A stretch of 64,000 nt of DNA from Escherichia coli (GCF_003018235.1 NZ_CP027437.1); one strand, 5' to 3'; positions 1 through 37,310 are shown, counted from the first letter of the stretch. The notes: generated from the letters alone by a model not told the origin. Program-made: numbers and translations.

Positions 1-2
1 CT

Positions 3-65: not shown

Positions 66-149
66 CCTGGCCTGAAGCATTCACCACGGCAGGAATTGCG
101 ATGGCGGTGGCACTGGTTGTGTATTCTATTTGTCGTTGGGGGTAAACAC

Positions 150-864: not shown

Positions 865-1125
865 ATGTCTATCACTGAACAGAGGTTACCCCTTATGGCA
901 AACCGTAAACAACAGCGCGCCCGCACTGAGCGTCGTCACATCCAGACCGAAATCAACCGCAGACTGTACCGGGCTATCACTGTCGCCAGAGTCATGTACT
1001 TCAATATGCTGTGTGATCAGGGATGCCAGATTGCACCTGATTACATTGCCTCCACGTTCAGTTACCTGGCAGACGATCTGCGGGATATGCAACGCCTGGT
1101 TAACGATCAGGCGCATAACCTGTAA
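865..1125 (+). CDS. hypothetical small basic protein upstream of replication gene
   Basis: ATG with GGTGAG RBS; Arg/Lys-rich N-terminus; 86 aa. Confidence 0.4.
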   Translation: MSITEQRLPLMANRKQQRARTERRHIQTEINRRLYRAITVARVMYFNMLCDQGCQIAPDYIASTFSYLADDLRDMQRLVNDQAHNL

Positions 1126-1203
1126 CGCACTTTTTCCTGAAATCATGAAACGGCACTCCGCTATCTGGCGGGGTGTCTGGCTGCCCGTTATCCGGGAGGA
1201 CAT

Positions 1204-3126: not shown

Positions 3127-3253
3127 ATTTTCCGGTTAAGTCAGCGGAAGAAACTGGACTTGTCCGGAGAATAAAAATACCGGTTTTACCTGGGCATGGT
3201 TTTATATACAGTGTCGCTGTATGGCGACAGTTAAGTGAAAAATGAGGTGGAAC

Positions 3254-3523
3254 ATGAGAGGACTGGAGCTTGAACGAATGACGCCGGAAAAAATGCATGC
3301 AATTGGTATGGAGTTCATCAGGAGATCTGAGGCCATGACGCAGGCGGGGATGACAAAAGACGCTGTCAGAAAAAATCTGCTTCCGGCGATACAGCGCCTG
3401 AACCGTGCAAAACATGAGCTTCAGATGGTGGTTGATCAGATGATCGATAAGGCAGCAGAGCTGGAAAAGTATAGCAGTGCGCTTGAAAAAATCATTCAGG
3501 ATATTGTGGGCACTGAGCAGTAA
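3254..3523 (+). CDS. hypothetical helical prophage protein (89 aa)
   Basis: ATG preceded by GAGGTGG RBS; first gene of a tightly spaced three-gene cassette. Confidence 0.4.
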   Translation: MRGLELERMTPEKMHAIGMEFIRRSEAMTQAGMTKDAVRKNLLPAIQRLNRAKHELQMVVDQMIDKAAELEKYSSALEKIIQDIVGTEQ

Positions 3524-3533
3524 GAGGTGGGGT

Positions 3534-4613
3534 ATGCAGGCGATCCTGACGGTATTCCCGCAGCGTAATGCCGGGATAACACTGATGAAAACAGGTAATC
3601 TGACAGCGCGGTTCAGGGACGGGCAGAGAATAATGATAAGGGATGTTCCGTCTGTGATGGCTGGGATGCCATCAGGAGAAATTCCGTCATCAGGACAGAG
3701 GCTGGCGGAAGAGGAAGGACTGACGGCTTTCTTTGCTGACGGAAGGGTAATAAAGCGTGCTGGTGGCAGTGATGCCATGGCGCGTTGGGTGAGCAGGATT
3801 GCAGGCTGCCAGTGTGAGAATGGTGATCACGTGGAGAACATGACAACAGCGCGGACAATGCAGGGAGAGGCGCTTCGGTTATGCCATGCCTGTGATAATC
3901 ATCATTATATGAAAGGATATCGGGCGCTGGCAGATGTGGCAGCCAGAAATCGTGCAGAATGGCTGATGGATTATATCAGGATGAGTCTGGGGCTGGGGGA
4001 AGATCATCAGGTGACCATTCCTGAGTTGTTTTGCTGGGCAGTGCTGAATGATGTGGCAGATGCTGTTCCGGTTATGATCGTAAGGCGTATCAGACAATTG
4101 CCGGAAGAGGAAAAGCTGAGCGGCACGATGAAAGAAGCAGATATTAATCCCTGGCAGACATCAGCAGGCACAGTGGTGAAGAAACTGGCAGATAATGCGA
4201 AGAGCGTTAATGTGTGCAATGTGCGGGTCAGACATGCAGTACGCCAGGAAGAACACAAAGAAATGGAAAAACCGGTGCTGAAACTTGTTGCAGACAGTGA
4301 TCCGGCTGCGGGCTATATGAGGAAGCCCAGAATGCAGCGGCTGTCTCTGCCGGGTTATACCTCGTGGGTGAAGCGTCAGCGATGCTGTGGATGCGGGAAA
4401 CCTGCAGATGATCCGCATCACATCACCGGGCACGGTTTTGGTGGTGCAGGGATAAAAGCCAGTGATTTGTTTGTGATCCCGCTGTGTCGGCAATGTCATC
4501 AGGAATTACACAATGACAGCAAGGCATGGGAGGAGAAAAACGGCAGTCAGTTGCTGTGGGTGATAAGGACGCTGGACAGGGCAGCGGGCATTGGCGCTTT
4601 AGTTGGGGGGTAA
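3534..4613 (+). CDS. Cys/His-rich prophage protein, resembles YdfU/DUF968 family (from memory)
   Basis: ATG with AGAGGTGGGG RBS; C-terminal CCGCGKPADDPHHITGHGFGG...IPLCRQCHQELHN zinc-binding-like cluster and internal CQCENGDH...CHACDNHHY cluster; size about 359 aa. Confidence 0.4.
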   Translation: MQAILTVFPQRNAGITLMKTGNLTARFRDGQRIMIRDVPSVMAGMPSGEIPSSGQRLAEEEGLTAFFADGRVIKRAGGSDAMARWVSRIAGCQCENGDHVENMTTARTMQGEALRLCHACDNHHYMKGYRALADVAARNRAEWLMDYIRMSLGLGEDHQVTIPELFCWAVLNDVADAVPVMIVRRIRQLPEEEKLSGTMKEADINPWQTSAGTVVKKLADNAKSVNVCNVRVRHAVRQEEHKEMEKPVLKLVADSDPAAGYMRKPRMQRLSLPGYTSWVKRQRCCGCGKPADDPHHITGHGFGGAGIKASDLFVIPLCRQCHQELHNDSKAWEEKNGSQLLWVIRTLDRAAGIGALVGG

Positions 4614-4614
4614 C

Positions 4615-5319
4615 ATGACACCGCAACAGATGGTATGGGCGAGAGAGCAGGTTATTTTTGCACTGAATCCACCGGATAAACGTCAGAAGGGGCAACTGGA
4701 GGCATTTGGTGATTTTGCCAGGTCAGACACCAGGCGTTACGGGAGGCAGAGAAACAGGACACTGAACATTGATGGCCGGTGGTATTGTCAGGATGGTGAT
4801 CCGGTACATGCTGCGGCAACAGCCTGTTATGCAATACAACCGGATATGATCACCAGGGAAGCGTTCAGAACGGCACAACTGAGGAGGAGGATTTATTGTC
4901 TGGAGGATTATCATCGGGCCTGGGTGTTATTCAGTTACAGCTTGCAGAAAAAACGAATACACCATCTTCTGGTCAGTGAGTACATCTGGATGAGGATGTT
5001 CGAGCGGTTGCAGGGGAAACGGGTTACGGACAGGATGACAGGAAATCTGATTGAAATAGCGAGGATGGCTGCATGGAATGCTGCAGTGACAGCCGGTGGG
5101 ATTGTTGCAGGTAAGGTTCTGATTGCTCCTTCATGTGCGGCGCAGATTGCAGGTGTAAAACCAAACACATGGAGTCAGCATTACAAGGCTCACTGGTGTT
5201 TTATGCATGAAGTATGCGATGAACTGGATCATGAGGCGCTGGTGACCATTACAGGAATAAAAAATCACCAAAAAAACGGCGAAAAATATAAATTTGCTAA
5301 AGTGAATATTTTAAGGTAG
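4615..5319 (+). CDS. hypothetical protein, candidate Q-type late antiterminator (by position and size only)
   Basis: Start 1 nt after upstream stop; 234 aa; followed immediately by promoter-like hexamers and a strong intrinsic terminator, as for Q/PR-prime/tR-prime. Confidence 0.3.
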   Translation: MTPQQMVWAREQVIFALNPPDKRQKGQLEAFGDFARSDTRRYGRQRNRTLNIDGRWYCQDGDPVHAAATACYAIQPDMITREAFRTAQLRRRIYCLEDYHRAWVLFSYSLQKKRIHHLLVSEYIWMRMFERLQGKRVTDRMTGNLIEIARMAAWNAAVTAGGIVAGKVLIAPSCAAQIAGVKPNTWSQHYKAHWCFMHEVCDELDHEALVTITGIKNHQKNGEKYKFAKVNILR

Positions 5320-5322
5320 ATT
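5294..5322 (+). promoter_or_regulatory. candidate sigma70 promoter (possible PR-prime analogue): TTGCTA, 17-nt spacer, TAGATT
   Basis: Hexamers read directly at 5294-5299 and 5317-5322, at the 3-prime end of the candidate Q gene. Confidence 0.25.
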
Positions 5323-5363
5323 TGAGGCAAATTTGATAGTCTGCCGTATTTGTAAGCAGAGCA

Positions 5364-5390
5364 TAAACCCGCATATTGCGGGTTTTTTTA
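5364..5390 (+). terminator. intrinsic terminator (AACCCGCA-TATT-TGCGGGTT plus T7)
   Basis: Perfect GC-rich hairpin followed by TTTTTTT. Confidence 0.65.
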
Positions 5391-5513
5391 TGCCCGAAAT
5401 TTTCCCTCAGCGCAATAAATACGCTGGTGGTTGTGAGTACCGGTCTTTCAGCTTGCTGGCTTTTTCGACAAGAGTTATTGGTATGCCACGTTAACCGGAC
5501 AGGGGGAAAAGAC

Positions 5514-5711
5514 ATGCTGAAACAGCAGGATATGACAGAAACCGCCAGGGTGGTGTTTAATGAATTAAGCATTACCGAACCGGCGACCGTCGGGGAAATA
5601 GCGCAGAATACCTGCCTTTCACGTGAACGCTGCCAGTTAATACTGACTCAGCTTGTTATGGCGGGTCTGGCTGACTATCAGTTCGGTTGTTACAGACGCC
5701 TTCAGCAATGA
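5514..5711 (+). CDS. small winged-helix-like DNA-binding protein (65 aa)
   Basis: ATG with AGGGGGAAAAG RBS; helix-turn-helix-like segment VGEIAQNTCLSRERCQLILTQLVMAGL. Confidence 0.45.
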   Translation: MLKQQDMTETARVVFNELSITEPATVGEIAQNTCLSRERCQLILTQLVMAGLADYQFGCYRRLQQ

Positions 5712-5862
5712 AGGCATTCTTTTATTGTGAAGATGGGCGACTGGTTAGGTGTTACAGCACCCAACCAGTCATTCGCTCATGCTTGAAGGTCACAAGCGAA
5801 CCCAGGCCCACCGCTTTTGCACAAAAGCCCGGAGAGCCTACCGGAGATGAGTTTGTTGATCT

Positions 5863-6930
5863 ATGACGCATGTTGTAAAAATATCAGAAAGTGAACTGGT
5901 CAATGCTGACTGCCTGGAATTTATACACACGTTGCCAGATGACAGTATTGACCTGATCGTTACCGATCCACCGTACTTTAAAGTGAAACCCAATGGCTGG
6001 GATAACCAGTGGAAGGGTGATGAAGATTACCTGAAGTGGCTGGATCAGTGTCTTGCGCAGTTCTGGCGGGTGCTGAAACCTGCCGGAAGTCTTTACCTGT
6101 TCTGTGGCCATCGCCTGGCATCTGACATCGAAATCATGATGCGTGAACGCTTTAATGTGCTGAACCATATTATCTGGGCGAAGCCGTCCGGACGCTGGAA
6201 CGGATGCAACAAGGAAAGCCTGAGGGCGTATTTCCCGGCCACAGAGCGCATTCTGTTCGCGGAACACTATCTGGAGCCGTATCGCCCGAAAGATGATGGT
6301 TATGAGGCGAAGGGCAGGGCACTGAAACAGCATGTGATGGCACCGCTGATTTCTTACTTTCGTGATGCGCGTGCCGCCCTTGGGATAACGGCAAAACAGA
6401 TTGCTGATGTCACAGGAAAGAAAAACATGGTGTCGCACTGGTTCAGTGCCAGTCAGTGGCAGCTGCCGAACGAAAGCGATTATCTGAAATTACAGGCGCT
6501 GTTTGCCCGGGTGGCAGAAGAGAAGCATCAGCGCGGAGAACTGGAAAAGCCACACCACCAGCTGGTGGTAACGTATACCTCACTGAACCGGCAGTATGCG
6601 GAGTTGCTGAGTGAATACAAAAATCTGCGCCGGTATTTTGGCGTGACGGCGCGGGTCCCGTACACCGATGTGTGGACGCACAAGCCGGTCCAGTTTTACC
6701 CGGGTAAACACCCCTGTGAAAAACCGGCGGAGATGCTGCGGCAGATAATTTGTGCGAGCAGCCGTCCTGGTGACATGGTGGCGGATTTCTTTATGGGGTC
6801 GGGCTCAACCATAAAAGCCGCTATGGCGCTGGGGCGTCGTGCAATTGGTGTTGAACTGGAAGAGGAACGTTTTGCGCAGACCGTGAAAGAGATTAGTCAT
6901 ATCCTGACAGGCTCAATTGATGACGGATAA
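5863..6930 (+). CDS. orphan DNA amino-methyltransferase (N6-adenine/N4-cytosine, beta-class motif order)
   Basis: TDPPYF (motif IV) near N-terminus and FFMGSGST (motif I) near C-terminus; no adjacent restriction endonuclease. Confidence 0.8.
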   Translation: MTHVVKISESELVNADCLEFIHTLPDDSIDLIVTDPPYFKVKPNGWDNQWKGDEDYLKWLDQCLAQFWRVLKPAGSLYLFCGHRLASDIEIMMRERFNVLNHIIWAKPSGRWNGCNKESLRAYFPATERILFAEHYLEPYRPKDDGYEAKGRALKQHVMAPLISYFRDARAALGITAKQIADVTGKKNMVSHWFSASQWQLPNESDYLKLQALFARVAEEKHQRGELEKPHHQLVVTYTSLNRQYAELLSEYKNLRRYFGVTARVPYTDVWTHKPVQFYPGKHPCEKPAEMLRQIICASSRPGDMVADFFMGSGSTIKAAMALGRRAIGVELEEERFAQTVKEISHILTGSIDDG

Positions 6931-7380
6931 GGATGGATAAAGACATGGTCAGTTCAGGATGCGAAGCAAGTAAACAGATAAGGCTATAAAAAAAACTGAC
7001 AGTAGAAAAATAGCTTTTTCCCAGGTATTCATGAACACAATCTCTTAAAAGCGCCCGCTGATACCAGCGGGCAATACATACTGGCATTGATGTTAAGTTT
7101 ACAGGTTTCATTTATCGTATCGTGCGACACGACGTTGTTATGTTAATAAGTGTGATTTTTGATGTGAAATGTTTGTTGCGTGTTTTTTGATGGGTTTCTC
7201 ATTTTTCAGGCATCATCTCGTCACTGATGTGCAGCACAGCGATGAGGTGCTACTACTTCCACGGAGCGGATTTTGTCTTTTTTGTGGGTGGTAAAAATCT
7301 CCTTATAGCAGGATGTGATAATTATTTATCAGTATAATCTTATGAGATTGACGCGATTTCTCCGGATTTGTTAGAAGATC

Positions 7381-7420
7381 ATGCATGGTGAATCCACCTC
7401 AGCGGTGGGTCATAATGACC
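7381..7420 (+). repeat. about 40-bp conserved motif, copy 1 (GCATGGTGAATCC-hairpin-CATAATGAC)
   Basis: 33 of 40 identical to copy 2 at 7940-7979. Confidence 0.5.
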
Positions 7421-7456
7421 GCCTGTTCGCCGGTTCAATCCCTGCGGGGGCCACCA
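7404..7456 (+). pseudogene. degenerate tRNA: ileX/ileZ-like 3-prime half (CAT anticodon, T-arm, GGGGGCC-A-CCA) lacking a pairing 5-prime acceptor strand
   Basis: 3-prime half aligns closely to E. coli ileX recalled from memory; no 5-prime sequence can pair with the acceptor 3-prime strand. Confidence 0.4.
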
Positions 7457-7457
7457 T

Positions 7458-7534
7458 GCGCCGTTAGCTCAGCTGGACAGAGCAATTGCCTTCTAAGCAA
7501 TCGGTCACTGGTTCGAATCCAGTATGGCGCACCA
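7458..7534 (+). tRNA. tRNA-Arg (anticodon TCT, reads AGA)
   Basis: Cloverleaf folded by hand: 7-bp acceptor stem, perfect 5-bp anticodon stem ATTGC/GCAAT, loop CTTCTAA, T-loop TTCGAAT, encoded CCA. Confidence 0.85.
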
Positions 7535-7535
7535 T

Positions 7536-7610
7536 GCGGTCATCGTATAATGGCTATTACCTCGGCCTTCCAGGCTGATGATGCGGGTTCGATTCCAGCT
7601 GGCCGCTCCA
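7536..7610 (+). tRNA. tRNA-Gly (anticodon TCC), glyT-like with one T-stem mismatch
   Basis: 75 nt, near-identical to E. coli glyT recalled from memory; anticodon loop CTTCCAG; acceptor stem with one G-U; T-stem GCGGG/CCAGC has a G-A mismatch. Confidence 0.7.
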
Positions 7611-7630
7611 TAGAGGATTATGGGGACTGT

Positions 7631-7768
7631 ATGTTGAGTATTTTTCTGCGTTACCTTTCATCGGTAAAAATAAACACACAACAACTATTTATGCTGGCAT
7701 TAGCAATGATAGTTATTGGTTTTCTCGGAACTTGTTTATTTATTTACTATATTTTTGTCGATAATTAA
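7631..7768 (+). CDS. small hydrophobic peptide ORF (45 aa, MLSIFLRYLSSVKINTQQLFMLALAMIVIGFLGTCLFIYYIFVDN)
   Basis: ATG ORF in AT-rich spacer after tRNAs; one predicted TM helix; weak RBS. Confidence 0.25.
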   Translation: MLSIFLRYLSSVKINTQQLFMLALAMIVIGFLGTCLFIYYIFVDN

Positions 7769-7939
7769 TATTTTTAGTATTTAGCCAGAGTGGCCCAAAC
7801 AGAAAATAAAGTTACTGTGAAACAGGGGGGCCTAATAAAAATAATCACCACTAAATTCGGGGCTTTAAAAATGCTAAGAACATCACATTTCATTATGCCG
7901 GGTACTGGAGAATAACATGATGTTTTGTTAAAAATGATT

Positions 7940-7979
7940 TTGCATGGTGAATCCCCCTGTGCGGCGGGGCATAATGACA
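7940..7979 (+). repeat. about 40-bp conserved motif, copy 2
   Basis: See copy 1; a partial inverted copy (GGTCATTGCAG...CACCATGCAG) lies at about 8021-8064. Confidence 0.5.
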
Positions 7980-8321
7980 GATGTTTGGTTGCGTATTGTA
8001 TAGGCAAGTTGCGGATTCTGTCTGGTCATTGCAGAATTCACCGGGAGGCACCCGGCACCATGCAGATAATTGTTTTGTGGATGATAATACCAGCCCCTCT
8101 CCGGAGGGGCTTTCTTATGGGCGAAAAAAAGCCCGGGGAGCCGGGCAATAGCATGAGATATACGTTTTTATAGACGTACAGATTTTAATCAGAATTTATG
8201 GGGCTGCGCAACTGCGTGGCCTTTTTTGTTTTGTGGGCTAAGGTTTTCCCCTTTGATTCGCCATGTGGCTGAACCTGTAGCCCGCCACTGTTCAGACGCA
8301 ATCCCGGCAAGGGGAGGAATA

Positions 8322-10349
8322 ATGGCATTTAAACACTACGATCTGGTCTCTGCCAGCAGCGGTGATGAACTGCAAAAGAAACTGACAGAAAAAATAAATG
8401 AAGGGTGGCAGCCATACGGTTCGCCGCTTGTTTCGTATGACGATAACGGGATGAAAATTATTCAGGCCATTGCAGCAGAGGGTGATGTCAGGATCCCGGT
8501 TGAAACGCCTGATGATGGTGGTGATTCACCGGTCACAATGACCTCCGGTGCACCTGATTATTATTATGTTGTTGTGCTTGCCGGACAGTCCAACGGCATG
8601 GCCTACGGTGAGGGGCTTCCGTTACCGGACTCTTATGACCGCCCGGACCCGCGCATTAAACAGCTGGCACGCCGCAGTACAGTGACGCCGGGTGGGGACG
8701 CCTGTGCATACAATGATGTGATTCCGGCTGACCATTGTCTGCATGATGTACAGGATATGAGCGGTGTTAATCATCCGAAAGCGGACCTGAATAAGGGGCA
8801 GTATGGCTGTGTCAGTCAGGGGCTGCATATTGCCAAAAAACTGCTGTCGTATATCCCGCAGAATGCAGGGATACTTCTGGTGCCCTGCTGCCGTGGTGGT
8901 TCTGCATTCACCACCGGGGCTGACGGCACATTCAGTGAGGTCACCGGCGCATCCGCTGACGCTGCACGCTGGGGTGCCGGTAAACCCCTGTATCAGGACA
9001 TGGTCAGCCGGACAAAAGCGGCGCTGGCCAAGAACCCGAAAAACAGGCTGCTGGCGGTGGTATGGATGCAGGGCGAGGCAGACCTTGCGTCAGGCAGTCA
9101 GCAGCATAACGGGTTATTCACGGCCATGGTTCAGCAGTTCCGGACTGACCTGTCCTCACTTGCTGCGCAGTGCGTGAGTGGCAATGCTGCCACGGTGCCG
9201 TGGATTTGTGGTGATACCACGTATTACTGGAAGGCCACTTATGGCACACAGTATGAAGCCATTTATGGAGCCTATAAGAATCTGTCCGCACAGAATATTT
9301 TCTTTGTACCGTTCCTGACAGATGAAAACGGCGCAAACACGCCAACGAACCAGCCAGCGGAAGACCCGGATATTGTGGCTGTGGGGTATTACGGTGCGGC
9401 ATCACGAACACAGGCGAACTGGACGACAGCGCAACGTGACAGCCATTTCAGCACCTGGGCGCGTCGCGGCATCATTTCTGACCGCCTTGCGTCAGCTATT
9501 CTGGTGCACGCGGGACGTACGTCAGGTTTCATTACCGGTGAAGTTTCTTCTCCGGACACTGCATCCGGTGACGGTGGTTCGTCCACTGATGCGGGTACGG
9601 ATGCGGGGACCGGCACTTCCGGAACAGGAAGTGATGACGCTACCGGAACGACACCAGCCACCGCTGCCATTATTCTGAGTGCAGACGGAGGGGATGTTTC
9701 GGCACAGGGCTGGACGGTGGAAGGCACCACGGTGACCACCACGGCAAACACGGTGACTTCATCGGGTGAGGCGCTGGCGCAGAATGTGCTGAGTGTTCCG
9801 AAACAGAGCGGGGCAGCATGGAAGCTTGTTCATACCACCACAGATGAGCCAGCGGAACTGCTGAACAATGGCGGTGAGTTCCTGTGTCGTTTCCGTATCA
9901 CGGATACTGCCATTGCTGAGGGGCGTTATGCCTTTGGTCTTTACTGGCTTCCGGACGCACAGAAGATACCAGCCGGTGCGACATTCAATAAAACAGGAAG
10001 CGGGATGTCCCCGTCCATGCTCAACTTCTATGTCCAGACGGATGGCAGCAACATAAACCTGTTATCACACTGCAGTACGAAGAGTGCAGGGAATCTGAAG
10101 ATTGGCTCATTCGGTGCATTTAACAATGAATGGCATACCTTCCGTCTTCGCTACCATGGTGGCAATACGGCAAGAGCAACGGTGACGCTGGACAGTCAGG
10201 TGGTGGGAGATATAACGCTGTTATGTGCGCCGTCAGCGGCCAGTGCCGGTGACACTCTGTCGATGATAAGTATCACATCGGGTGATACATACAGTATTGA
10301 AGTGGAAAGCCTGAGTGTGACGGTGAACGGGGCTGCGGCAGCGGCGTGA
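8322..10349 (+). CDS. prophage sialate O-acetylesterase-like protein (NanS-p-like) with long C-terminal Thr/Gly-rich domain
   Basis: GGGGAGGAATA RBS then ATG; SASA-type catalytic motif VLAGQSNGMAYGEG; N-terminal region resembling DUF1737; position equivalent to the esterase gene downstream of stx in Stx phages. Confidence 0.6.
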   Translation: MAFKHYDLVSASSGDELQKKLTEKINEGWQPYGSPLVSYDDNGMKIIQAIAAEGDVRIPVETPDDGGDSPVTMTSGAPDYYYVVVLAGQSNGMAYGEGLPLPDSYDRPDPRIKQLARRSTVTPGGDACAYNDVIPADHCLHDVQDMSGVNHPKADLNKGQYGCVSQGLHIAKKLLSYIPQNAGILLVPCCRGGSAFTTGADGTFSEVTGASADAARWGAGKPLYQDMVSRTKAALAKNPKNRLLAVVWMQGEADLASGSQQHNGLFTAMVQQFRTDLSSLAAQCVSGNAATVPWICGDTTYYWKATYGTQYEAIYGAYKNLSAQNIFFVPFLTDENGANTPTNQPAEDPDIVAVGYYGAASRTQANWTTAQRDSHFSTWARRGIISDRLASAILVHAGRTSGFITGEVSSPDTASGDGGSSTDAGTDAGTGTSGTGSDDATGTTPATAAIILSADGGDVSAQGWTVEGTTVTTTANTVTSSGEALAQNVLSVPKQSGAAWKLVHTTTDEPAELLNNGGEFLCRFRITDTAIAEGRYAFGLYWLPDAQKIPAGATFNKTGSGMSPSMLNFYVQTDGSNINLLSHCSTKSAGNLKIGSFGAFNNEWHTFRLRYHGGNTARATVTLDSQVVGDITLLCAPSAASAGDTLSMISITSGDTYSIEVESLSVTVNGAAAAA

Positions 10350-27082: not shown

Positions 27083-27831
27083 TTATCATGAAACAGACAG
27101 AATCAGACATTCTGGCGCATGCCCGGCGGTGTGCGCCAGCGGAGTCGTGCGGCTTCGTGATAACCACGCCGGAGGGTGAACGGTACCAGCCGTGTGTGAA
27201 TATTTCCGCAGAGCCGGAGGCGTATTTTCGTATTGCTCCGGAAGACTGGCTGCGGGCGAAGATGTCGGGGGAGATTGTGGCGCTGGTCCACAGTCATCCC
27301 GGCGGCCTGGCCTGGCTGAGTGAGGCAGACCGGCGTCTGCAGATAAAAAGCGCACTGTCCTGGTGGCTGGTCTGCCGGGGAGACATTCATAAATTCCGCT
27401 GTGTTCCACACCTGACCGGGCGGCGTTTTGAGCACGGGGTGACGGACTGTTACACGCTGTTCCGGGATGCATACCATCTGGCGGGGATTGAGATGCCGGA
27501 TTTTCACCGCGAGGATGAGTGGTGGCGAAACGGTCAGAACCTGTACCTGGACAATATGGAGGCAACGGGCTTTTACCGGGTGCCCCTGTCCTCTGCACAG
27601 GCGGGCGATATTCTGCTGTGCTGCTTTGGTTCATCGGTACCGAACCATGCCGCGGTTTACTGTGGCAACGGCGAGCTGCTTCACCATATACCTGAACAAC
27701 TGAGTAAACGGGAGAGGTATTCCGAAAAATGGCAACGACGAACGCATTCAGTCTGGCGTCACCGCCACTGGCACGCATCTGCCTTCACGGGGATTTACAA
27801 CGATTTGGCCGCCGCATCAGCCTGTATGTGA
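27079..27831 (+). CDS. tail tip assembly protein K (JAB/MPN plus NlpC/P60-like)
   Basis: VALVHSHPGG JAB/MPN motif; overlaps L and I; start GTG 27079 or ATG 27088. Confidence 0.7.
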   Translation: MIIMKQTESDILAHARRCAPAESCGFVITTPEGERYQPCVNISAEPEAYFRIAPEDWLRAKMSGEIVALVHSHPGGLAWLSEADRRLQIKSALSWWLVCRGDIHKFRCVPHLTGRRFEHGVTDCYTLFRDAYHLAGIEMPDFHREDEWWRNGQNLYLDNMEATGFYRVPLSSAQAGDILLCCFGSSVPNHAAVYCGNGELLHHIPEQLSKRERYSEKWQRRTHSVWRHRHWHASAFTGIYNDLAAASACM

Positions 27832-28373
27832 ACACGGCAGCGGAGGCCATCCGTGCCCTGTCGTTACAGGTGCCCGGTTTTCGCCGTCAGATGAACGAAG
27901 GCTGGTACCGGGTGCGTATTGCCGGTGAGGATACCTCGCCGGAACAGATAATGACACGACTGCATGAGCCGTTGAGCCACGGGGATATCATTCATCTGAT
28001 CCCCCGGACCGAAGGTGCCAAAAGCGGTGGTGTTTTTCAGGCGGTGCTGGGAGCTGCACTGGTTGTTGCCTCCATCTGGATGCCGGGTATCGGTATTGCT
28101 GCCAGCAACATTATGTTTTCCATGGGGGCAGCAATGGCGCTGGGGGGTGTCGCACAACTGCTGGCCCCGAAGGCAAAGACGCCGGAGTACAGAAGCACGG
28201 ATAACGGTAAACAGAACACGTATTTCTCCTCACTGGACAACATGATTGCCCAGGGCAACCCGATGCCGGTGCCTTATGGTGAGATGCTGGTGGGTTCACG
28301 ACGGATATCCCAGGACATCAGCACCCGGGATGAAGGCGGTGACGGAAAAGTGGTGGTTATCGGTCGGGGGTGA
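27729..28373 (+). CDS. tail assembly protein I
   Basis: Strong match to lambda I recalled from memory (ARICLHGDLQRFGRRI, GAKSGGVFQ, DNGKQNTYFSSLDNM). Confidence 0.85.
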   Translation: MATTNAFSLASPPLARICLHGDLQRFGRRISLYVNTAAEAIRALSLQVPGFRRQMNEGWYRVRIAGEDTSPEQIMTRLHEPLSHGDIIHLIPRTEGAKSGGVFQAVLGAALVVASIWMPGIGIAASNIMFSMGAAMALGGVAQLLAPKAKTPEYRSTDNGKQNTYFSSLDNMIAQGNPMPVPYGEMLVGSRRISQDISTRDEGGDGKVVVIGRG

Positions 28374-28618
28374 GAATAAAAAAATACCCACAGTGTTGGC
28401 CAGGCTGTGGGGAATACGATGAAAAACCATGTGAAGGAGTTATTTTTATGTACGGTGAAACTGTAACGCTGTGCAATTATCAGCGCCACAGGTATTTTGC
28501 AGAAATGTGAAGAAATTCAGAATTTTTATTCAGTCAGTCAACAGACAGGCACCCCACGGGGTGCCTGTTGTTTTTGGGTATAAACAGATTCAGGCATCAG
28601 GCTGGACAGGGGGACAGA

Positions 28619-31600
28619 GTGGGTAAAGGTGGTGGTAAGGCGCACACGCCGGTTGAGGCGAAAGATAACCTGAAATCCACGCAGATGATGAGCGTGATTG
28701 ACGCGATTGGCGAAGGCCCGGTGGAAGGTCCGGTTAACGGTCTGCAGAGTATTCTGGTGAACAAAACCCCGCTGACGGACACGGACGGCAATCCCGTGAT
28801 ACACGGTGTGACAGCCGTCTGGCGTGCCGGGGAGCAGGAGCAGACACCGCCGGAAGGCTTTGAGTCCTCCGGGGCGGAAACCGCGCTGGGTGTGGAAGTC
28901 ACGAAGGCAAAGCCGGTGACGCGCACCATCACATCAGCGAACATTGACCGTCTGCGGGTGACCTTCGGGGTGCAGTCACTGGTGGAGACCACCTCACAGG
29001 GTGACCGTAATCCTTCTTCAGTCCGCCTGCTGATTCAGGTGCAGCGTAACGGCAACTGGGTGACGGAGAAGGATATCACCATTAACGGCAAGACCACCTC
29101 GCAGTACCTGGCGTCGGTGATAATCGGTAACCTGCCTCCCCGCCCCTTTAACATCCGGATGGTCAGGGAAACGGCGGACAGCACCACGGACCAGCTGCAG
29201 AACAGGACGCTGTGGTCGTCATACACCGAAATCATCGATGTGAAACAGGGTTACCCGAACACGGCCATTGTGGGGCTGCAGGTGGATGCGGAGCAGTTCG
29301 GCGGCCAGCAGATGACGGTGAACTACCATATCCGCGGTCGCATCATCCAGGTGCCGTCAAACTATGACCCGGAAAAACGCACATACAGCGGTATCTGGGA
29401 CGGGAGTCTCAAACCGGCATACAGCAACAACCCGGCCTGGTGCCTGTGGGACATGCTGACGCACCCGCGCTACGGGATGGGAAAACGCCTGGGGGCAGCG
29501 GATGTGGACAAGTGGGCACTGTATGCCATCGGACAGTACTGTGACCAGCGTGTTCCGGACGGCTTCGGAGGGACAGAGCCGCGGATGACGTTTAATGCGT
29601 ACCTGTCACAGCAGCGTAAGGCGTGGGACGTTCTCAGTGATTTCTGCTCGGCAATGCGCTGTATGCCGGTATGGAACGGCCAGACGCTGACGTTCGTTCA
29701 GGACCGCCCGTCGGATGTGGTGTGGCCGTACACCAACAGCGATGTGGTGGCGGATGATAACGGCGTGGGGTTCCGCTACAGCTTCAGCGCCCTGAAGGAC
29801 CGGCACACGGCGGTGGAGGTGAACTGGACCGACCCGCAGAACGGCTGGCAGACCTCCACAGAGCTGGTTGAGGACCCGGAAGCGATACTGCGCTACGGGC
29901 GCAATCTGCTGAAGATGGATGCGTTCGGCTGTACCAGCCGCGGTCAGGCCCACCGTGCCGGACTGTGGGTGATAAAGACCGAACTGCTGGAAACACAGAC
30001 GGTGGATTTCACACTCGGGTCACAGGGGCTGCGCCACACGCCGGGTGACATCATTGAAATCTGTGATAACGACTATGCCGGGACCATGACCGGCGGGCGC
30101 ATTCTGTCCGTTGACGCTGGCAGCCGGACCCTGACGCTGGACCGTGAGGTGACGCTTCCGGAAACCGGCACATCCACGGTGAACCTGATTAACGGCAGCG
30201 GTAAGCCGGTAAGTGTGGACATCACCGCACAACCGGCCCCTGACCGGATACAGGTCAGCGCCCTGCCAGATGGCGTGGAGACATACGGTGTGTGGGGACT
30301 GAAAATACCCGGTCTTCGCCGTCGCCTGTTCCGCTGTGTGTCCATCCGGGAAAACACGGACGGCACCTTTGCCATCACGGCGGTGCAGCATGTGCCGGAG
30401 AAGGAAGCCATTGTGGATAACGGGGCCACCTTTGAGCCGCTGTCCGGTTCGCTGAACAGTGTCACACCTCCTGCCGTGCAGCACCTCACGGTGGCGGTGA
30501 GTGCGTCTGACGGCCAGTATCTGGCGCAGGCGAAATGGGACACGCCACGGGTGGTGAAGGGCGTGCGCTTCAGTCTTCGCCTGACCAGCGGAAGCGGAGA
30601 AGACAGCCGTCTGGTGACCACTGCCATCACCGCAGACACGGAGCACCGTTTCAGTGGCCTGCCGCTCGGGGAATACACCCTGACCGTGAGAGCGATAAAC
30701 AGTTACGGCCAGCAGGGGGAGCCTGCCGGTACCACGTTCCGGATTGACGCCCCGGCAGCGCCTGTAACCATTGAACTGATACCGGGATATTTTCAGATAA
30801 CGGCGGTCCCGAAACTGGCCATTTATGACCCGACGGTGCAGTTTGAGTTCTGGCTCTCGGAAAAGCAGATTGCGGATGTTCGTCAGGTTGAAACCACCGC
30901 CCGTTATCTTGGTACGGCGCTGTACTGGAGTACCGCCAGTAATATCAGGCCGGGGTATGATTATTATTTTTATATCCGCAGCGTCAACCTGGTGGGCAAA
31001 TCGGCATTCGTGGAGGCCGTCGGCCGGGCCAGCGATGATGCGGAAGGTTACCTGGATTTTTACAAAGGGCTGATTAATAAAACACATCTCGGTAAAGAGC
31101 TGCTGGAAAACGCTGAACTGACGGAGGATAACGCCAGTAAGCTGGAGCAGTTCTCGAAAGAGTGGAAGGACGCGAACGATAAATGGAATGCCATGTGGGG
31201 CGTCAGAATTGAGCAGACCGAAGACGGTAAGCATTATGTTGCCGGGCTTGGTCTCAGCATGGAGGATACGGAAGAAGGCAAGCTGAGCCAGTTTCTGGTT
31301 GCCGCCAGCCGTATTGCGTTTATTGACCCGGCAAACGGGAATGAAACGCCGATGTTTGTGGCGCAGGACGGGCAGATATTCATGAACGACGTGTTCCTGA
31401 AACGCCTGACGGCTCCCACCATTACCAGCGGCGGAAATCCACCGGTATTTTCCCTGACACCGGACGGAAAGCTGACTGCCAGAAATGCGGATATCAGCGG
31501 CAGTATCACCGCCAGTTCGGGTACGCTCAACAATGTGACGATAAACCAGGACTGTGTGATTAAGGGCAATTTATCCGCGGCACAGATAACCGGAGATATT

Positions 31601-31915
31601 GCGAAGACGTATGTGCTTAACGGGAACAGTGTGTATATCCCTGCTCAGGTATTTACCATGAATCTGGTGATGCTGGGCGGTGCCGGACACCTGTACTTTA
31701 ACGGTAACGAGCAGACACCGGTTTCCTCTGCGATCCTTTCGAGGATGCAGACAGACAGTGTCTGGAGCGGCGGAAGTCCGGGGCATGGTGGCGGCAGTTA
31801 CAGACCTGTTTACAGCACAATCTGGATCAAGGTGTTCAGGCTTAATGCGGGGACACCCGTGACGGTGTCGGTTTCAGACAATGCCGTGACGGTTATCTGG
31901 ATGTCGAAGGCGTAA
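28619..31915 (+). CDS. central tail fibre / host specificity protein J with divergent C-terminal receptor-binding region
   Basis: GTG start giving [11 protein letters not shown]; near-colinear to lambda J for about 980 aa; last about 110 aa unrelated to lambda J. Confidence 0.9.
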
Positions 31916-32001
31916 ATTTGTTAACTCGTTGAAATATTTATAACCCCGGTACGGGCACCAGAAATGGTGCCTTTTTTATTGCAGAAAAGCGAGAGGTCAT
32001 T

Positions 32002-32601
32002 ATGCGTAAATTATGTGCAGTTATTTTGTCTGCAGCTGTCTGGCTGGTTGCTGCTGTTGTGCCAGCGGGTGCCGCAGAGTATCAGTCCACACTGAGTGCC
32101 GGATATCTTCATGCCCGTTCCGGGATGTCCGGCAGTGATGATTCAGCCGGATTCAATGTGAAATACCGTTATGAATTAACGGACACACTGGGGATGGTGA
32201 CGTCATTCAGCTATGCAGGAGACAGGAATTGCCAGCTGACCCGTTACAGCGATACCCGCTGGCATGAGGATTCCGTGCGTAACCGCTGGTTCAGCGTGAT
32301 GGCGGGGCCGTCTGTGCGCGTGAATGAATGGTTCAGCGCGTATGCGATGGCGGGTGTTGCTTACAGCCGTGTGTCGACCTTCTCCGGGGATTATCTTCGC
32401 GTGACTGACAACAAGGGAAAAACGCACGATGTGCTGACCGGAAGTGATGACGGTCGCCACAGCAACACGTCACCGGCGTGGGGGGCTGGCGTGCAGTTTA
32501 ACCCGACCGAATCCGTGGCCATTGATATTGCTTATGAAGGCTCCGGCAGTGGTGACTGGCGCACTGACGGTTTCATTGTGGGTGTCGGTTATAAATTCTG
32601 A
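32002..32601 (+). CDS. lom: Lom-like outer membrane protein (Ail/Lom/PagC family)
   Basis: Signal peptide and beta-barrel pattern; position after J as in lambda. Confidence 0.8.
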   Translation: MRKLCAVILSAAVWLVAAVVPAGAAEYQSTLSAGYLHARSGMSGSDDSAGFNVKYRYELTDTLGMVTSFSYAGDRNCQLTRYSDTRWHEDSVRNRWFSVMAGPSVRVNEWFSAYAMAGVAYSRVSTFSGDYLRVTDNKGKTHDVLTGSDDGRHSNTSPAWGAGVQFNPTESVAIDIAYEGSGSGDWRTDGFIVGVGYKF

Positions 32602-32665
32602 TTAGCCAGGTGACACAGTGTTATGACAGCCCGCCGGTTCAGGCGGGCTTTTTTGTGGGGGGAAT

Positions 32666-33859
32666 ATGCCAGTACAGATTTCAGGTGTGCTGAAGGATGG
32701 TACAGGAAAACCGGTACCGGAGTGCACCATAGAGCTGAAAGCCGTGAGAACCAGTGAGACGGTGGTGGTCACCACGGTGGCGGAGTGTCAGCCGGGGGAA
32801 ACAGGCAGTTACAGCATGCAGGTTGAGCCGGGGCGTTATCGTGTGACCCTGTGCGTGGAAGGTCGCCAGCCAGCATATGCCGGAGAGATTGATGTCATGG
32901 CAGACGACAAACCGGGTACCCTGAATGCCTTTCTGCTCCGTGAAACGGATGCTGCGTATTACCCTGATGCACTGAAGAAACTGGAAGCGGCGGCGGATGA
33001 GGCTGTGCGCAGGGCGCGGGAAGCTGCTGAGAAAGCGGAAACTGCCGTGGGGCCACAGGGGCCAAAGGGAGATAAAGGCGAGAAGGGGGAGCAGGGGCCA
33101 AAGGGTGATAAGGGAGACACCGGTGCACAGGGGCCGAAGGGAGAAACCGGCGCTAAGGGTGACAAAGGTGATACAGGCCCCGCAGGTCCGAAAGGTGAGC
33201 GGGGCGACCCTGGCGGCCCACAGGGGCCAAAAGGGGATACGGGAGCCGCAGGTCCGGCAGGCCCACAGGGGCCGAAAGGGGATACCGGAGCCACAGGCCC
33301 GGCAGGCCCACAGGGACCAAAAGGAGATACCGGAGCCGCAGGTCCGGCAGGCCCACAGGGACCGAAAGGAGATACAGGAGCCACCGGTCCGGCAGGCCCA
33401 CAGGGACCGAAAGGAGATACGGGGGCCGCAGGCCCGGCAGGCCCACCGGGACCGAAAGGAGATACCGGAGCCACTGGTCCGGCAGGCCCACTGGGACCGA
33501 AAGGGGATACGGGAGCCACCGGTCCGGCAGGTCCGCAGGGGCCGAAAGGCGATACCGGAGCCACCGGTCCGGCAGGTCCGCAGGGTCCGGCGGGAAGTTC
33601 TGACAGCGGGTTGTTTGGCGTCGGTTCTTTTGTTCTTGCAGCGTATTACCCGACGAGTTACTCGGGGGACATGCCACCGGGCACAACTGTTGCCGGGTCA
33701 TCACTGTCTGCATGCTGCCTTTCGAATGGTACTCCCCTGATTGCGTCCGGTAATGTGGGGGAAACCCGTTTACCGGGGACGTGGCGTGCATGTGGTCCGT
33801 TAATATGGACATCTGCTGCGGGTATCAGACAGGCAGGATTATTTCAGCGCATATCATGA
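32666..33859 (+). CDS. side tail fibre protein (Stf-like) with collagen-like Gly-X-Y repeats
   Basis: N-terminus [17 protein letters not shown] matches lambda Stf N-terminus; about 160 aa of GPKGDTGA-type triplets. Confidence 0.75.
33040..33600 (+). repeat. tandem 45-bp (15-aa [15 protein letters not shown]) collagen-like repeats inside stf
   Basis: Repeated nucleotide unit read directly; generates spurious ORFs on both strands. Confidence 0.7.
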
Positions 33860-33869
33860 GGAGGTCAGG

Positions 33870-34475
33870 GTGGATAAGGGAAAAGAGATTCTTGCAGTAC
33901 GAAATGCCGGTTACAACGAATACGGCGGTATAAACTGTGAGGTGCAGTTTGAAGGCGCGGTGAATGAAAAAGGTGAAGCGTTATGGCTGCCATATACGGC
34001 AACGGAAACGGATAATACTGAACACGGAAAAGCATTATGGTCTGGTCTGACAGCAGGAAAGTACGGAGATGTGACCGCCTTTGCTGCCACGGAAGCTGTT
34101 CTTGAGGCGGCAAAATCGGTGAAAAGGGAGGAGATTAATCTCTGGCGGGACGTGCAGGAAAATATGGAATACGTGATGGAATTCAACGGAAGAAAATGGG
34201 ATTACGGCAAGAAGACATTGTCCAGGATAAGCACGACGCGCCTGATGGCGGAAAAAAACAGTCTTCCGGAAGGATTTGCGTGGACGGATGGTGAAAATAA
34301 TGTGGTGCCGGTGACGGCGGCGGAAGTTATCGCGCTGTCGGATGCGATAGAGAAGGCGATGTTTGCGAAGGGGGTGGAGATTAACACCAGACAGTTGCAG
34401 ATGAAAGCAGAGGTTGAGGCGCTGACAGAGCTGAAGTCCATCAGAAGTTATGTTGTTGGCTGGCCTGCCAGTTGA
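33870..34475 (+). CDS. hypothetical protein in tail-fibre-assembly position, not lambda Tfa-like
   Basis: GAGGAGG RBS then GTG; 201 aa; no similarity to lambda Tfa recalled. Confidence 0.4.
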   Translation: MDKGKEILAVRNAGYNEYGGINCEVQFEGAVNEKGEALWLPYTATETDNTEHGKALWSGLTAGKYGDVTAFAATEAVLEAAKSVKREEINLWRDVQENMEYVMEFNGRKWDYGKKTLSRISTTRLMAEKNSLPEGFAWTDGENNVVPVTAAEVIALSDAIEKAMFAKGVEINTRQLQMKAEVEALTELKSIRSYVVGWPAS

Positions 34476-35135
34476 ATAAAAAAAGCGGGGCCACCCCCGG
34501 GCCCCGACATAACGAAGTATCAGATGTTTATAATTATTAGCTTACTAACTGTGCCATATCAGAATACTGCAGGAAGTGATGTTGTTATCATTTTTGCAAG
34601 CAGGGCGTTTCTGGAGGGAATCGATTGGTGATGGAGTGTGCAATGATGAAGGGAATAAGCCTCTGCAAAACAAAAAAAGACTTTAACAAAATCAAGCTCG
34701 CTTAGTGGCGCATCTGCCCGTATCCGCACCAGTCGTCCGGAAAATGATTCAAACACCGGGCGGCAAAAGTATTACCAGTGTAGCAACCTGGAATGCGGCG
34801 TATGCTTCTCAACTCTGGCAGCTTTCCATAAATTCACATCGAAACACGCTTCCGGCGTTCACTCTTCAGAAGGTATCCCGTGGCATGAACTGCCAGCTTC
34901 ACACTGGTGAAACAATCAGATGACTTTTCCTTTACCTCAAATTAACAGGCAGAATTGCCGGAGTAACAAAAAAACGATAGATTACGCGCGGGTGCCTTTC
35001 GGCTGATGGTCGGAGGGAATACCCGAAGGCCAGATGTGGAAAGGCCCCGGAAAACACTTTTGTTTAACCGAGGCCCTAACCGTCTACCCTAAGCAAGTGA
35101 TAGGTTAGCGCCTCCCCGAAAAAGGAGCAAGCGCT

Positions 35136-35276
35136 ATGTCGCAAAAATCGCTGATCGCCATCACGCTCTGCGTGACAGCAACCCTCATCATCTGGATATT
35201 GCACGGTTCGCTGTGTGAGATACGGATGAGTTTCTGGGGAGCGGAGTTTGCGGCGTTCTTACAGTGTAAGCAGTAA
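35136..35276 (+). CDS. Hok/Gef-family type I toxin (46 aa)
   Basis: AAGGAG RBS; TM helix then SLCEIR...EFAAFLQCK matching Hok signature SLCEIRYRDGHREVAAF (from memory); structured flanking RNA. Confidence 0.6.
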   Translation: MSQKSLIAITLCVTATLIIWILHGSLCEIRMSFWGAEFAAFLQCKQ

Positions 35277-35417
35277 GGAGACCGCGACGGGGGAGTAATC
35301 CCCCGTCAATCGGTTGTCAGGGTAAGGTCGAAGTGGCACCCAAATTTAAATAGAGGCCCACCAGTAAGAGTAAGAGCGGTGGGCTTAGCACTTGTTTAAA
35401 TTTGAAAGGAATTCTTT

Positions 35418-35714
35418 ATGAGTGAAATGGTATTTTGTCGCGGCTGCGGCAAGGAAATACATAAAAATGCCATATCTTGCCCCAATTGTGGAGCACCTCA
35501 AAGAACAGCAAGTTCAAAAAGCAGGATTACAGCTGCACTACTGGCTTTCTTTTTTGGTGGTCTCGGTGCACACAAATTTTATTTAGGTAAAGTGGGACAA
35601 GGATTTCTTTATCTTATTTTTTGCTGGACATTCATTCCGGCAATCGTGGCTTTTATTGAGTTTATTATCTATCTATGCACCTCAGATGAAGATTTCGCCC
35701 GCAAATATGGCTGA
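35418..35714 (+). CDS. zinc-ribbon plus TM2-domain membrane protein (98 aa)
   Basis: CRGCG...CPNCG zinc ribbon; TM2-like motif FFFGGLGAHKFYLG and two TM helices. Confidence 0.6.
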   Translation: MSEMVFCRGCGKEIHKNAISCPNCGAPQRTASSKSRITAALLAFFFGGLGAHKFYLGKVGQGFLYLIFCWTFIPAIVAFIEFIIYLCTSDEDFARKYG

Positions 35715-35749
35715 CATCTAGCGGACGAATCAGAATGACAAACCCGCAA

Positions 35750-35780
35750 CCCGCAGCGTAAAAACTGCGGGTTTTCTTTT
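35750..35780 (+). terminator. intrinsic terminator after TM2-domain gene
   Basis: CCCGCAG...CTGCGGG hairpin followed by TTTTCTTTT. Confidence 0.6.
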
Positions 35781-35960
35781 GCTACCCATCACGAATGAGG
35801 GCACCATAAAGAAAGCCCACAGCATAGTGGTTGCGGGCTTTTTACATTCAAAGATGGACGTTTTATGGACATTGAAAGTTTAAATCCTTTAACTTTCAAC
35901 TGGTTGATGCTAATTTTAACGCACCCGAAGGCGCGTTGGCGATACACTCAATATAAAGGA

Positions 35961-36356
<396 letters not shown>

Positions 36357-36572
36357 TCAAAATGTGTGATGGAAATCTCATAATTTTGTCACTTTTTGTC
36401 AACGAATCTTTTTTGTGAGAAATCGCAGGAAGAGGTGTTTTTTTACTTGAGGAATATCTCAAAGCGAGCCATATTTGATGAGATCGATAGTGACTAAATC
36501 GCTTCAGTTTCACAACTAACAGAATAAAAAAACGGCAGCTCAAGGGCTGCCGTTTTGTGTTTCAGGTTTTTG

Positions 36573-37310
36573 TTATGTATTGCTGCTGTTTGCAGCGATG
36601 ATTTTCGCTACTTTTTCAGCTTGCGCATTCATCTGCATCTGACGGTATGCATTTTCCATCAGCGGCAGCGCATCACGCGTCGCCTGGGTATCCGGGTAGT
36701 CGCGCAACATGCCTTCTACGCGGTTAACGACGGCAACCCATGCACCACGTTCTGTATAGTACTCGGCAACGGAGTATTCATATTTCGCCAGACGATCTTT
36801 CAGGAATACCAGACGTTTGGTGGCATCGGTGGTGTACTGACTGTTCGGATAGCCGCGCACCAGTTTGGAAAAGTCACTAAACGCAGCTCGTGCATGTTGA
36901 GGATCGCGATCGCTACGGTCAACGCCAAAGAACCCTTGCAGCGCACTGTCATCGAGCGCCATATTGGTCAGGCCACGCATGTACATGACATAATCGATAT
37001 TCGGATGGGTCGGGTTAAGGCGAATAAAACGATCGATGGCAGCCTGTGCTAACGGCAAATCGGCGTTTTTATAGTAGGCGTAGATGAGATCCAGCTGCAC
37101 CTGCTGCGAATATGGACCAAACGGATAGCGATTATCTAACGCTTCCAGTTGCGTTATTGCCTGTCTCCAGTTACCGTCCTGCAGCTTTTGTTGTGCAGTC
37201 GCGTAAATTTCATTTGGCGGATTATCAGGTACTTCTTCCTTTGACCCCGAGCAACCCGCCAAAAACAGGCTTAGTGTGGCGGCTGCCACCAGATATTTCA
37301 TGCGCGTCAT
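36573..37310 (-). CDS. bamD: outer membrane protein assembly factor BamD
   Basis: 245 aa, lipoprotein signal LAGCSG, TPR-like; K-12 synteny. Confidence 0.95.

Follow-up and report, generated by a model that had tools for sequence, protein, structure and literature searches.

Results

raiA and its host flank

The segment analysed here, positions 34476 to 35960, lies within a 64,000-nucleotide stretch of an Escherichia coli chromosome (hereafter, the window) and directly adjoins raiA, the gene for ribosome-associated inhibitor A (35961..36302, minus strand). The raiA assignment comes from an NCBIfam equivalog match (NF007654; score 255.7 bits, cut-off 158) and from the RefSeq annotation of matching genomes. 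To the right of raiA the gene order of K-12 is kept (bamD, rluD, yfiH, clpB and an rrn operon). To its left, the host raiA 3' untranslated region, which is the proximal part of the RNA RaiZ (35935..35960, minus strand), is identical to that of K-12, and homology between the window and K-12 then ends at 35918, with phage DNA further to the left.

An earlier note on this DNA, made from the sequence of the window, had placed the right junction of a prophage beside raiA, where K-12 has pheL and pheA. Both parts of this claim are borne out: K-12 homology stops as described, and in K-12 the pheL start lies 103 bp past the raiA stop. Comparison with K-12 revealed no pheL-pheA sequence anywhere in the window. 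The same note proposed that the element occupies the raiA-pheA interval; this is indeed what is seen in NZ_CP076709 and NZ_CP051727, where the other end of the element adjoins pheL. The interruption is therefore genuine and uncommon: raiA and pheL are contiguous in 5,273 of 5,425 complete E. coli genomes.

A mosaic segment between the tail genes and raiA

The last lambdoid structural gene is a DUF4376 tail-fibre assembly gene (33870..34475, plus strand; Pfam PF14301, E 7.5e-15; annotated in the same way in NZ_CP076709). It is followed by non-coding lambdoid right-end DNA (34476..34698), which contains a GC-rich hairpin at 34486-34506 that was found in a scan of the minus strand. For ~130 bp past DUF4376 the DNA is still homologous to lambdoid prophages, and at 34625-34695 it shares 81% identity with PPompW-type prophages at their right ends. 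In ECOR29 a related prophage stops at a tRNA-Ser gene, ~300 bp past DUF4376.

Alignment with an intact P2-like D-ogr region locates a recombination joint between lambdoid and P2-like DNA at 34694..34705, in codons 5-7 of ogr. Identity with the D-ogr region begins at CGCTT / GTGGCGCATC, and BLAST homology to P88-like prophages begins at 34699. From this point to 35806 the window is 92.5% identical to the P88-like P2-type prophage of NZ_CP182378, and phage P88 itself shows 92.9% identity over 34699-35341. Thus, the description of raiA in the earlier note as followed by prophage cargo and tail genes needs amending: both are present, but the last 1.2 kb is P2-family DNA that is joined to the rest inside ogr.

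The ogr/delta late-activator gene is a remnant truncated at its 5' end (34699..34910, plus strand), matching only positions 6-45 of its Pfam profile (PF04606, 34.6 bits) and sharing 94% amino acid identity with residues 6-73 of the 86-aa Ogr of NZ_CP182378. Cys4 is lost, Cys7 is changed to Ser and the first CxxC is gone, which leaves the set of four cysteines in two CxxC motifs incomplete, and there is no in-frame ATG, GTG or TTG upstream that could serve as a start codon. Ogr activates the late promoters of P2. Its loss fits the hybrid design of the element (see below), because the late genes are Q-dependent and would leave Ogr without targets.

Downstream of the remnant, a putative hok mRNA leader with a sok-like regulatory region (34990..35149, plus strand; Rfam RF01794 (sok) at 45.7 bits and E 3e-8, less than the gathering score of 59) leads into an intact gene for a 46-aa Hok/Gef type I toxin (35136..35276, plus strand; Pfam PF01848 at 27.8 bits, cut-off 22). 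The Hok protein matches PHROG 251 ('MokW-like host killing', E 6.5e-21) and is 91% identical in amino acid sequence to its counterpart in the NZ_CP182378 P2-like prophage. The next gene, also intact, encodes a 98-aa membrane protein with a zinc ribbon and a TM2 domain (35418..35714, plus strand; Pfam PF05154, 69 bits) that is 95% identical at the amino acid level to the copy in the same prophage and has no NCBIfam match. A PADLOC defence search gave no match for the TM2 protein, Hok, the Ogr remnant, Lom or the DUF4376 protein. If expressed, the intact hok and TM2 genes would act as lysogen cargo.

A hairpin scan detected a terminator-like hairpin with a T-run after the TM2 gene (35748..35773, plus strand). 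Rfam matches to mir-1788 (35760-35827) and sraL (36526-36612) scored far below the respective gathering scores and were taken as chance-matched terminator hairpins. Beyond 35806, an integrase arm and the attachment core complete the interval.

The attachment core and the region of strand exchange

To define the attachment core, attR, attL and the empty attB were compared in four lysogens and K-12. The sequences compared were those of the window, K-12, NZ_CP076709 (O158:H23), NZ_CP051727 (SCU-111), NZ_CP149565 and NZ_CP182378, with the window contributing attR alone. The empty site in K-12 reads ...caacaaaaAACGCGCCCGAAGGCGCgttggcg, or in wider form ...caacaaaaAACGCGCCCGAAGGCGCgttggcgatac... In the window, NZ_CP076709 and NZ_CP051727, attR consists of the phage left flank, AACGCACCCGAAGGCGC and host DNA, and in the latter two genomes attL consists of host DNA, AACGCGCCCGAAGGTGC and phage DNA. 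The att junctions of NZ_CP149565 and NZ_CP182378 agree with this pattern. The core thus occurs as a single copy in the empty site and again at each end of the prophage in the lysogens compared, and in the window it lies at 35918..35934. Within it, the exchange region CCCGAAGG occupies 35924-35931, the A at 35923 being phage-derived and the C at 35932 host-derived. Since a phage-specific A (35923) and a phage-specific T flank CCCGAAGG, strand exchange can be placed within these 8 bp.

The earlier note had found neither an integrase nor an att core in the window and had held that the identity of the site could not be seen. The integrase is indeed outside the window, but the attR core is present together with integrase arm sites, and these identify the site as the raiA/RaiZ terminator hairpin. 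It was the alignment of the junction to an empty raiA-pheL site, which that note had recommended, that defined the core and the exchange region.

A degenerate form of the 17-mer core has one match in the window, with 0 expected by chance. No second or internal core was found in the window, including at the lambdoid/P2 joint, and relaxed matches were at chance level (8 against 7.1 expected). A 10-nt repeat of ACCCGAAGGC at 35021 was considered as a possible att copy; it lies in the hok leader hairpin and was judged coincidental.

On the phage side, ~50-65 bp from the core, the sequence contains two direct ATGGAC repeats that are 11 bp apart (35854..35870, plus strand). We read these as P2-type integrase arm-binding sites in the ogr-side att arm. 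[quoted passage not shown] A matching ATGGAC pair is present in the int-side arm of NZ_CP076709, where it overlaps the 3' end of int, and a pair is also found in the attR arm of NZ_CP149565. The att arm as a whole (35849-35917) is the lineage's own: it is common to a sister element in NZ_CP149565 (see below) and unlike the arm of the P88-like occupants of the site. Phage P88 was rejected as the source of the att module, as the P88 attP (…TTTTCGTGCCACCCGAAGGTGACATG…) has no more than the CCCGAAGG loop region in common with it and the integrases are 50% identical.

For the element as a circle, the predicted attP is ...GCTAATTTTAACGCACCCGAAGGTGCTTTAATGAGG..., and the attB predicted to be restored is AACGCGCCCGAAGGCGC. 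The left junction of the window's own element is predicted to read ...GTCAACAAAAAACGCGCCCGAAGGTGCTTTAATGAGG..., followed by pheL-pheA. Searches for an attP junction (phage arm-core-phage arm) returned 0 matches for two patterns in IMG/VR and for one pattern in JGI metagenome contigs.

As a check on the boundary we used SNP density, which gave 0 differences from NZ_CP076709 up to 36191 and 42 beyond. This is consistent with the boundary and cannot refine its position, because the first 257 bp of host DNA are invariant among the genomes compared. A full-text literature search found no description of raiA/yfiA-pheL as a phage attachment site, and the text of the P2 integrase review PMC3448106 mentions neither pheA nor yfiA.

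The whole element and its relatives

Collinearity with NZ_CP076709 indicates that the window starts inside the prophage. About 9.4 kb of the left part is outside the window, with the integrase gene ~8-9 kb past the left edge, and the att-to-att length in NZ_CP076709 is ~45.3 kb. Identity to NZ_CP076709 is 96% over 1-9502, 98.96% over 13007-57496 and 100% over 33600-36191. The integrase, Cox and attL of the window's own element are presumed from two genomes (NZ_CP076709 and NZ_CP051727) that are 96-100% identical to the window over the common part. Both carry a Cox-family gene (PF10743, 28.7 bits against a cut-off of 27.5), a gene for a C-like HTH repressor and a gene for a 329-aa tyrosine integrase that reads towards pheL. 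The integrase of these near-identical elements has the domains PF24624 and PF00589. Its identity is 58% with the enzyme of a P2-like prophage occupying this site and 50% with that of P88; its best match in the phage collection is at 72%, and the top matches are all Peduoviridae.

Inside the window, the early part of the element includes a gene for a GpA-type replication endonuclease (1204-3126; PF05840, E 5.5e-77), whose product has at most 37.5% identity to any GpA in 50,697 phage records. The early region of the element is covered by no phage record in this collection. By these comparisons, the element belongs to a lineage without a close relative in the searched collection of sequenced phages.

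From ~3.4 kb onwards the genes are lambdoid: DUF968, a Q antiterminator, a methylase, two tRNAs, lysis genes, terminase and portal are followed by a ClpP-capsid fusion, a lambda-like tail, J, lom and a collagen-like tail fibre. The late operon is recognizable as lambdoid by Q (PF06323), the GpJ domains, Ail/Lom and the tail-fibre N-terminal domain, in the order annotated in NZ_CP076709. J in the window is a full ORF of 1,115 aa with all GpJ domains. In the near-identical elements no lambda-type int/xis with an att of its own is annotated; the bounding DNA and the integrase are P2-type. As a whole genome the element is outside the Peduoviridae genus Xuanwuvirus, with lambdoid structural genes and a truncated ogr, and its DNA-level matches to P88-like genomes are confined to 34699-35806 and a short stretch at 592-1085. 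The annotated pseudogenes in the relatives are a RecE fragment, a frameshifted gene for a DNA-binding protein and a J labelled 'missing C-terminus'.

NZ_CP149565 and two further genomes have a sister element with the same site and layout, with 90% identity in the int-C-cox region and with HK97-like head genes. In NZ_CP149565 the sister element has no ogr-hok-TM2 block and carries lom and IS200C there instead. There are two possibilities for this difference: the block was gained from a P88-like phage, or it was lost by the sister. The former is plausible because both phage types compete for one site.

Occupancy of the site in complete E. coli genomes

The raiA-pheL site is split in 152 of the 5,425 complete genomes (~2.8%). 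At 125 of these 152 split sites (~2.3% of complete genomes) the attR junction is P88-like, of the type found in NZ_CP182378, and the int module of the sister hybrid is present in 3 of the 152 occupied genomes. Some 22 occupied genomes have junctions of neither the P88-like nor the hybrid kind. The joint and the attR arm of the window occur together in only two complete genomes of ~5,425, NZ_CP076709 and NZ_CP051727; the collection searched leaves out the window's own genome. As these junctions indicate, P2-family integrases have used the raiA/RaiZ terminator of E. coli repeatedly for attachment.

Relative to the two carriers, the host flank of the window diverges by 1.1% and 1.6%, whereas identity in the prophage end is 100% and 99.2%. 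Because the prophage end is near-identical while the host flanks differ, horizontal acquisition is favoured over recent common descent.

The raiA/RaiZ terminator at attR

RaiZ is annotated in K-12 as an ncRNA at 2737381-2737542, and its 3' end falls at the raiA terminator. It comprises the last third of raiA plus the 3' UTR, ends in a typical intrinsic terminator and in Salmonella is a ProQ-dependent repressor of hupA (PMC5391140). RNA folding shows that the core, read on the raiA strand, is this intrinsic terminator hairpin, AACGCGCC-UUCG-GGCGCGUU.

In K-12, UUUU directly follows the hairpin (the longer tail is UUUUGUUG). At attR, host DNA makes up the half of the hairpin nearer to raiA, and the phage arm supplies the distal half. 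The hairpin is kept in the window with one G-U pair and is then followed by AAAAUU, so that the GC-rich hairpin has no immediate U-tract. The tail after the hairpin is UUAAAAUU in the window versus UUUUUUGUUG in K-12 and UUUUUUGUAA in a P88-like lysogen. A similar tail results in the sister prophage of NZ_CP149565 (…GGGUGCUUUAAAAAAGG). In the P88-like occupants, by contrast, attP carries ACAAAAAACGCG..., and the raiA terminator is rebuilt exactly.

Further along the raiA strand, beyond attR, the next terminator-like hairpin lies at ~35800-35837. It was identified as an inverted repeat and in an RNA fold of 35785-35930, and consists of a GC-rich hairpin followed by UUUCUUUAU (35800..35837, minus strand), which makes it a candidate substitute terminator for raiA read-through. 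With the U-tract lost at attR, the 3' ends of raiA and RaiZ may change in the lysogen, the transcripts being extended or destabilized. Judging from sequence and folding, raiA/RaiZ transcripts would end further inside the prophage, possibly at this hairpin.

Discussion

A probable single composite prophage in the raiA terminator

We consider it highly probable that 34476-35960 is the right end and attR of a single composite prophage (~45 kb in its closest relatives), which was integrated in the manner of the P2 family into the raiA terminator hairpin, that is, into the 3' end of RaiZ. In the mechanism that we propose, a P2-family tyrosine integrase would insert the element in the hairpin and thereby split raiA from pheL-pheA, with strand exchange within CCCGAAGG falling in the loop and upper stem. 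The element is a mosaic: the genes for integration, immunity and replication (int, C-like repressor, Cox and GpA) are of P2 type and the late genes are lambdoid (Q, lysis, head and tail, J, lom and tail fibre), and a 1.1-kb P88-like block (truncated ogr, hok and TM2) lies between the end of the lambdoid tail region and the integrase arm. We infer that Int and Cox would remain able to integrate and excise the element. Given the pseudogenes flagged in the relatives, it could be defective.

This last point leads to a different view of how the element spreads, namely as an immobile, decaying prophage that moves solely by homologous recombination of chromosomal segments, which would make the junction a fossil on which Int and Cox have ceased to act. 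Such a history bears on the activity of the element and not on the identity of the junction, and we regard it as possible, if rather unlikely. In its favour, several genes of the relatives are annotated automatically as pseudogenes, searches of the viral and metagenome collections (IMG/VR and JGI) gave no attP form, and the element is very rare (2/5,426 complete genomes). However, all lysogens retain intact arm repeats and an intact imperfect core at either end, the relatives have full-length ORFs for int, C and Cox, and J is full-length in the window (1,115 aa). In addition, the presence at the same site of a diverged sister, 90% identical in int-C-cox and with other head genes, suggests a phage lineage that exchanges modules.

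The joint at ~34699 could also be the contact between two elements, a decayed P2-like remnant at raiA (the ogr fragment, hok, TM2 and the att arm) and a separate lambdoid prophage beside or inside it. This would account for an ogr that is cut exactly where the lambdoid DNA stops, for a block with 92.5% identity to P88-like prophages that are common at the site and for the resemblance of the lambdoid DNA before the joint to the natural right end of related lambdoid prophages. It is nevertheless very improbable: the window has a single copy of the core and no att-core-like sequence at or near the joint, and the sole integrase annotated in near-identical elements is the P2-type enzyme beside pheL, with none of lambda type. 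Furthermore, the att arm at 35849-35917 matches that of the hybrid lacking the ogr-hok-TM2 block rather than that of the P88-like occupants, and the joint is conserved across host backgrounds that differ by 1.1-1.6%. A conventional lambdoid prophage, for which an integrase of lambda type would have used an att site between raiA and pheL, is scarcely credible, since despite the lambda-like tail, lom and tail-fibre genes near the junction, the terminal 1.2 kb is P2-family DNA, the arm repeats are P2-type and the integrase at the far end of the relatives is P2-type and accompanied by Cox and a C-like repressor.

Taken as the attR of one composite prophage, the junction is ordinary in kind: it results from standard P2-family integration in a dyad-symmetric intergenic target, with the usual moron cargo beside att. 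What is new is (i) the target site, the raiA/RaiZ terminator, which was not found in the searched literature, (ii) the hybrid genome that uses it and (iii) the fact that the terminator is not restored. The prophage boundary is fixed to within 8 bp, which is useful for prophage annotation and for strain comparison. The junction is also a clear case of module exchange between P2-like and lambdoid phages, in which the position of the joint in ogr removes a regulator that is unneeded under Q control.

A more far-reaching proposal concerns the host. Lysogeny could lengthen or destabilize the ProQ-dependent RaiZ and the raiA mRNA and so alter the regulation of hupA (HU-alpha), and in parallel the element may represent a viable type of phage that pairs P2-style integration, immunity and rolling-circle replication with a late region of lambda style under Q control. 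We consider this combined proposal improbable. If true, it would be a case of lysogenic conversion through the rewired 3' end of a host small RNA. Two phage lineages share this one site, and one rebuilds the small-RNA terminator whereas the other does not, which provides a natural pair for the question of RaiZ/ProQ regulation.

Comparison with known systems

The toxin locus resembles the hok/sok phage morons of the HokW/MokW-like type in its 46-aa Hok/Gef ORF with an SLCEIR motif and in a leader that resembles the sok model; the match of the leader to sok is below the Rfam gathering score.

For integration, the closest parallel is the P2 family (Peduoviridae), which uses P2 Int, Cox and IHF acting at a core with arm repeats. 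As in that family, the relatives carry a P2-type integrase N-terminal domain, Cox and a C-like repressor, an imperfect core is flanked on either side by two direct TGGAC-type repeats, and ogr is at the prophage end opposite int. P2-type integrases have intergenic targets rather than tRNA genes (PMC3448106), and the raiA site is likewise intergenic. Unlike in the P2 family, the target is the raiA/RaiZ terminator, the integrase is 50-72% identical to those of sequenced phages, the morphogenesis genes are lambdoid and ogr is a remnant.

The P88-like prophages (genus Xuanwuvirus; for example, that of NZ_CP182378) share with the element the same attB, the exchange region and the ogr-hok-TM2 block. 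Unlike the element, they are complete myoviruses of P2 type; their ogr is intact, and an additional com/methyltransferase pair precedes attR.

The late region, from Q on, and the right end with its order J-lom-tail fibre-DUF4376 resemble those of lambdoid prophages in STEC and commensal strains (ECOR29 and PPompW), and the tail region at 27335-33589 is 96% identical to the ECOR29 prophage. The lambdoid prophages of the ECOR29 and PPompW type end at an att of their own (tRNA-Ser and ompW, respectively), whereas here the lambdoid DNA ends inside a P2 ogr.

Early region and late-gene cargo

In the window, Rfam matches above threshold to isrK RNA (641-715; 65.4 bits) and to a P1/P7 immunity-type C4 antisense RNA (751-838; 77 bits) lie just upstream of both a "derepression protein" gene and a GpA-type replication gene. 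Within the early region, DNA similarity to P88-like phages (~80%) is confined to 592-1085. The replication gene itself (1204-3126) encodes a 640-aa GpA-type rolling-circle endonuclease and is adjoined by DUF968 and a lambdoid Q antiterminator gene. Its product shares no more than 37.5% identity with the GpA proteins of the phage collection, where the P2-early/lambda-late hybrid lineage thus lacks a close relative.

Downstream of Q, the position at which Stx phages carry their toxin genes, is a stretch (5863-8122) holding a DNA methyltransferase gene, tRNA-Arg(UCU) (7458-7534), tRNA-Gly(UCC) (7536-7610) and STnc100 RNA (7912-8122; 145.6 bits). Further along, the side tail fibre gene (32666-33859; four Pfam Collagen matches) encodes a long collagen-like Gly-X-Y array. 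The repeat region (~33050-33590) differs in length among otherwise near-identical prophages, and the prophages of SCU-111 and ECOR29 differ there.

The gene adjoining attR (35418-35714) encodes a TM2-domain protein that bears a zinc ribbon at its N terminus and is 95% identical in amino acid sequence between the hybrid and P88-like prophages. The protein had no match in PADLOC or NCBIfam, and its PHROG families are of unknown function. It is the product of a well-conserved, uncharacterised lysogen gene. The sister hybrid prophage occupying the same raiA-pheL site in NZ_CP149565 carries IS200C between lom and attR (locus L010, 25580-26038) and ISCro1, of the IS66 family, upstream of J; this copy of the sister prophage, at least, is probably defective.

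Attachment sites

On the pheL side, the first base of a TTGACA hexamer lies 5 nt past the terminator hairpin (attL of the near-identical element in NZ_CP076709, locus L002, 26440-26660; empty K-12 site, locus L004, 2040-2100). The hexamer is likely the pheL-pheA -35 element. Given this spacing, what lies directly upstream of the likely -35 element at attL is no longer the original DNA but the 3' end of phage int, a gene transcribed towards pheL.

Arms 80-84% identical to window 35748-35935 occur in ~320 E. coli genomes at other chromosomal positions. The P2-type integrases concerned may have UUCG-loop terminator hairpins as their general target. The raiA core and the attP of phage P88 (…TTTTCGTGCCACCCGAAGGTGACATG…; locus L006, 35790-35814 and 1-30) have the hairpin-loop motif CCCGAAGG in common, whereas the P88 flanks differ.
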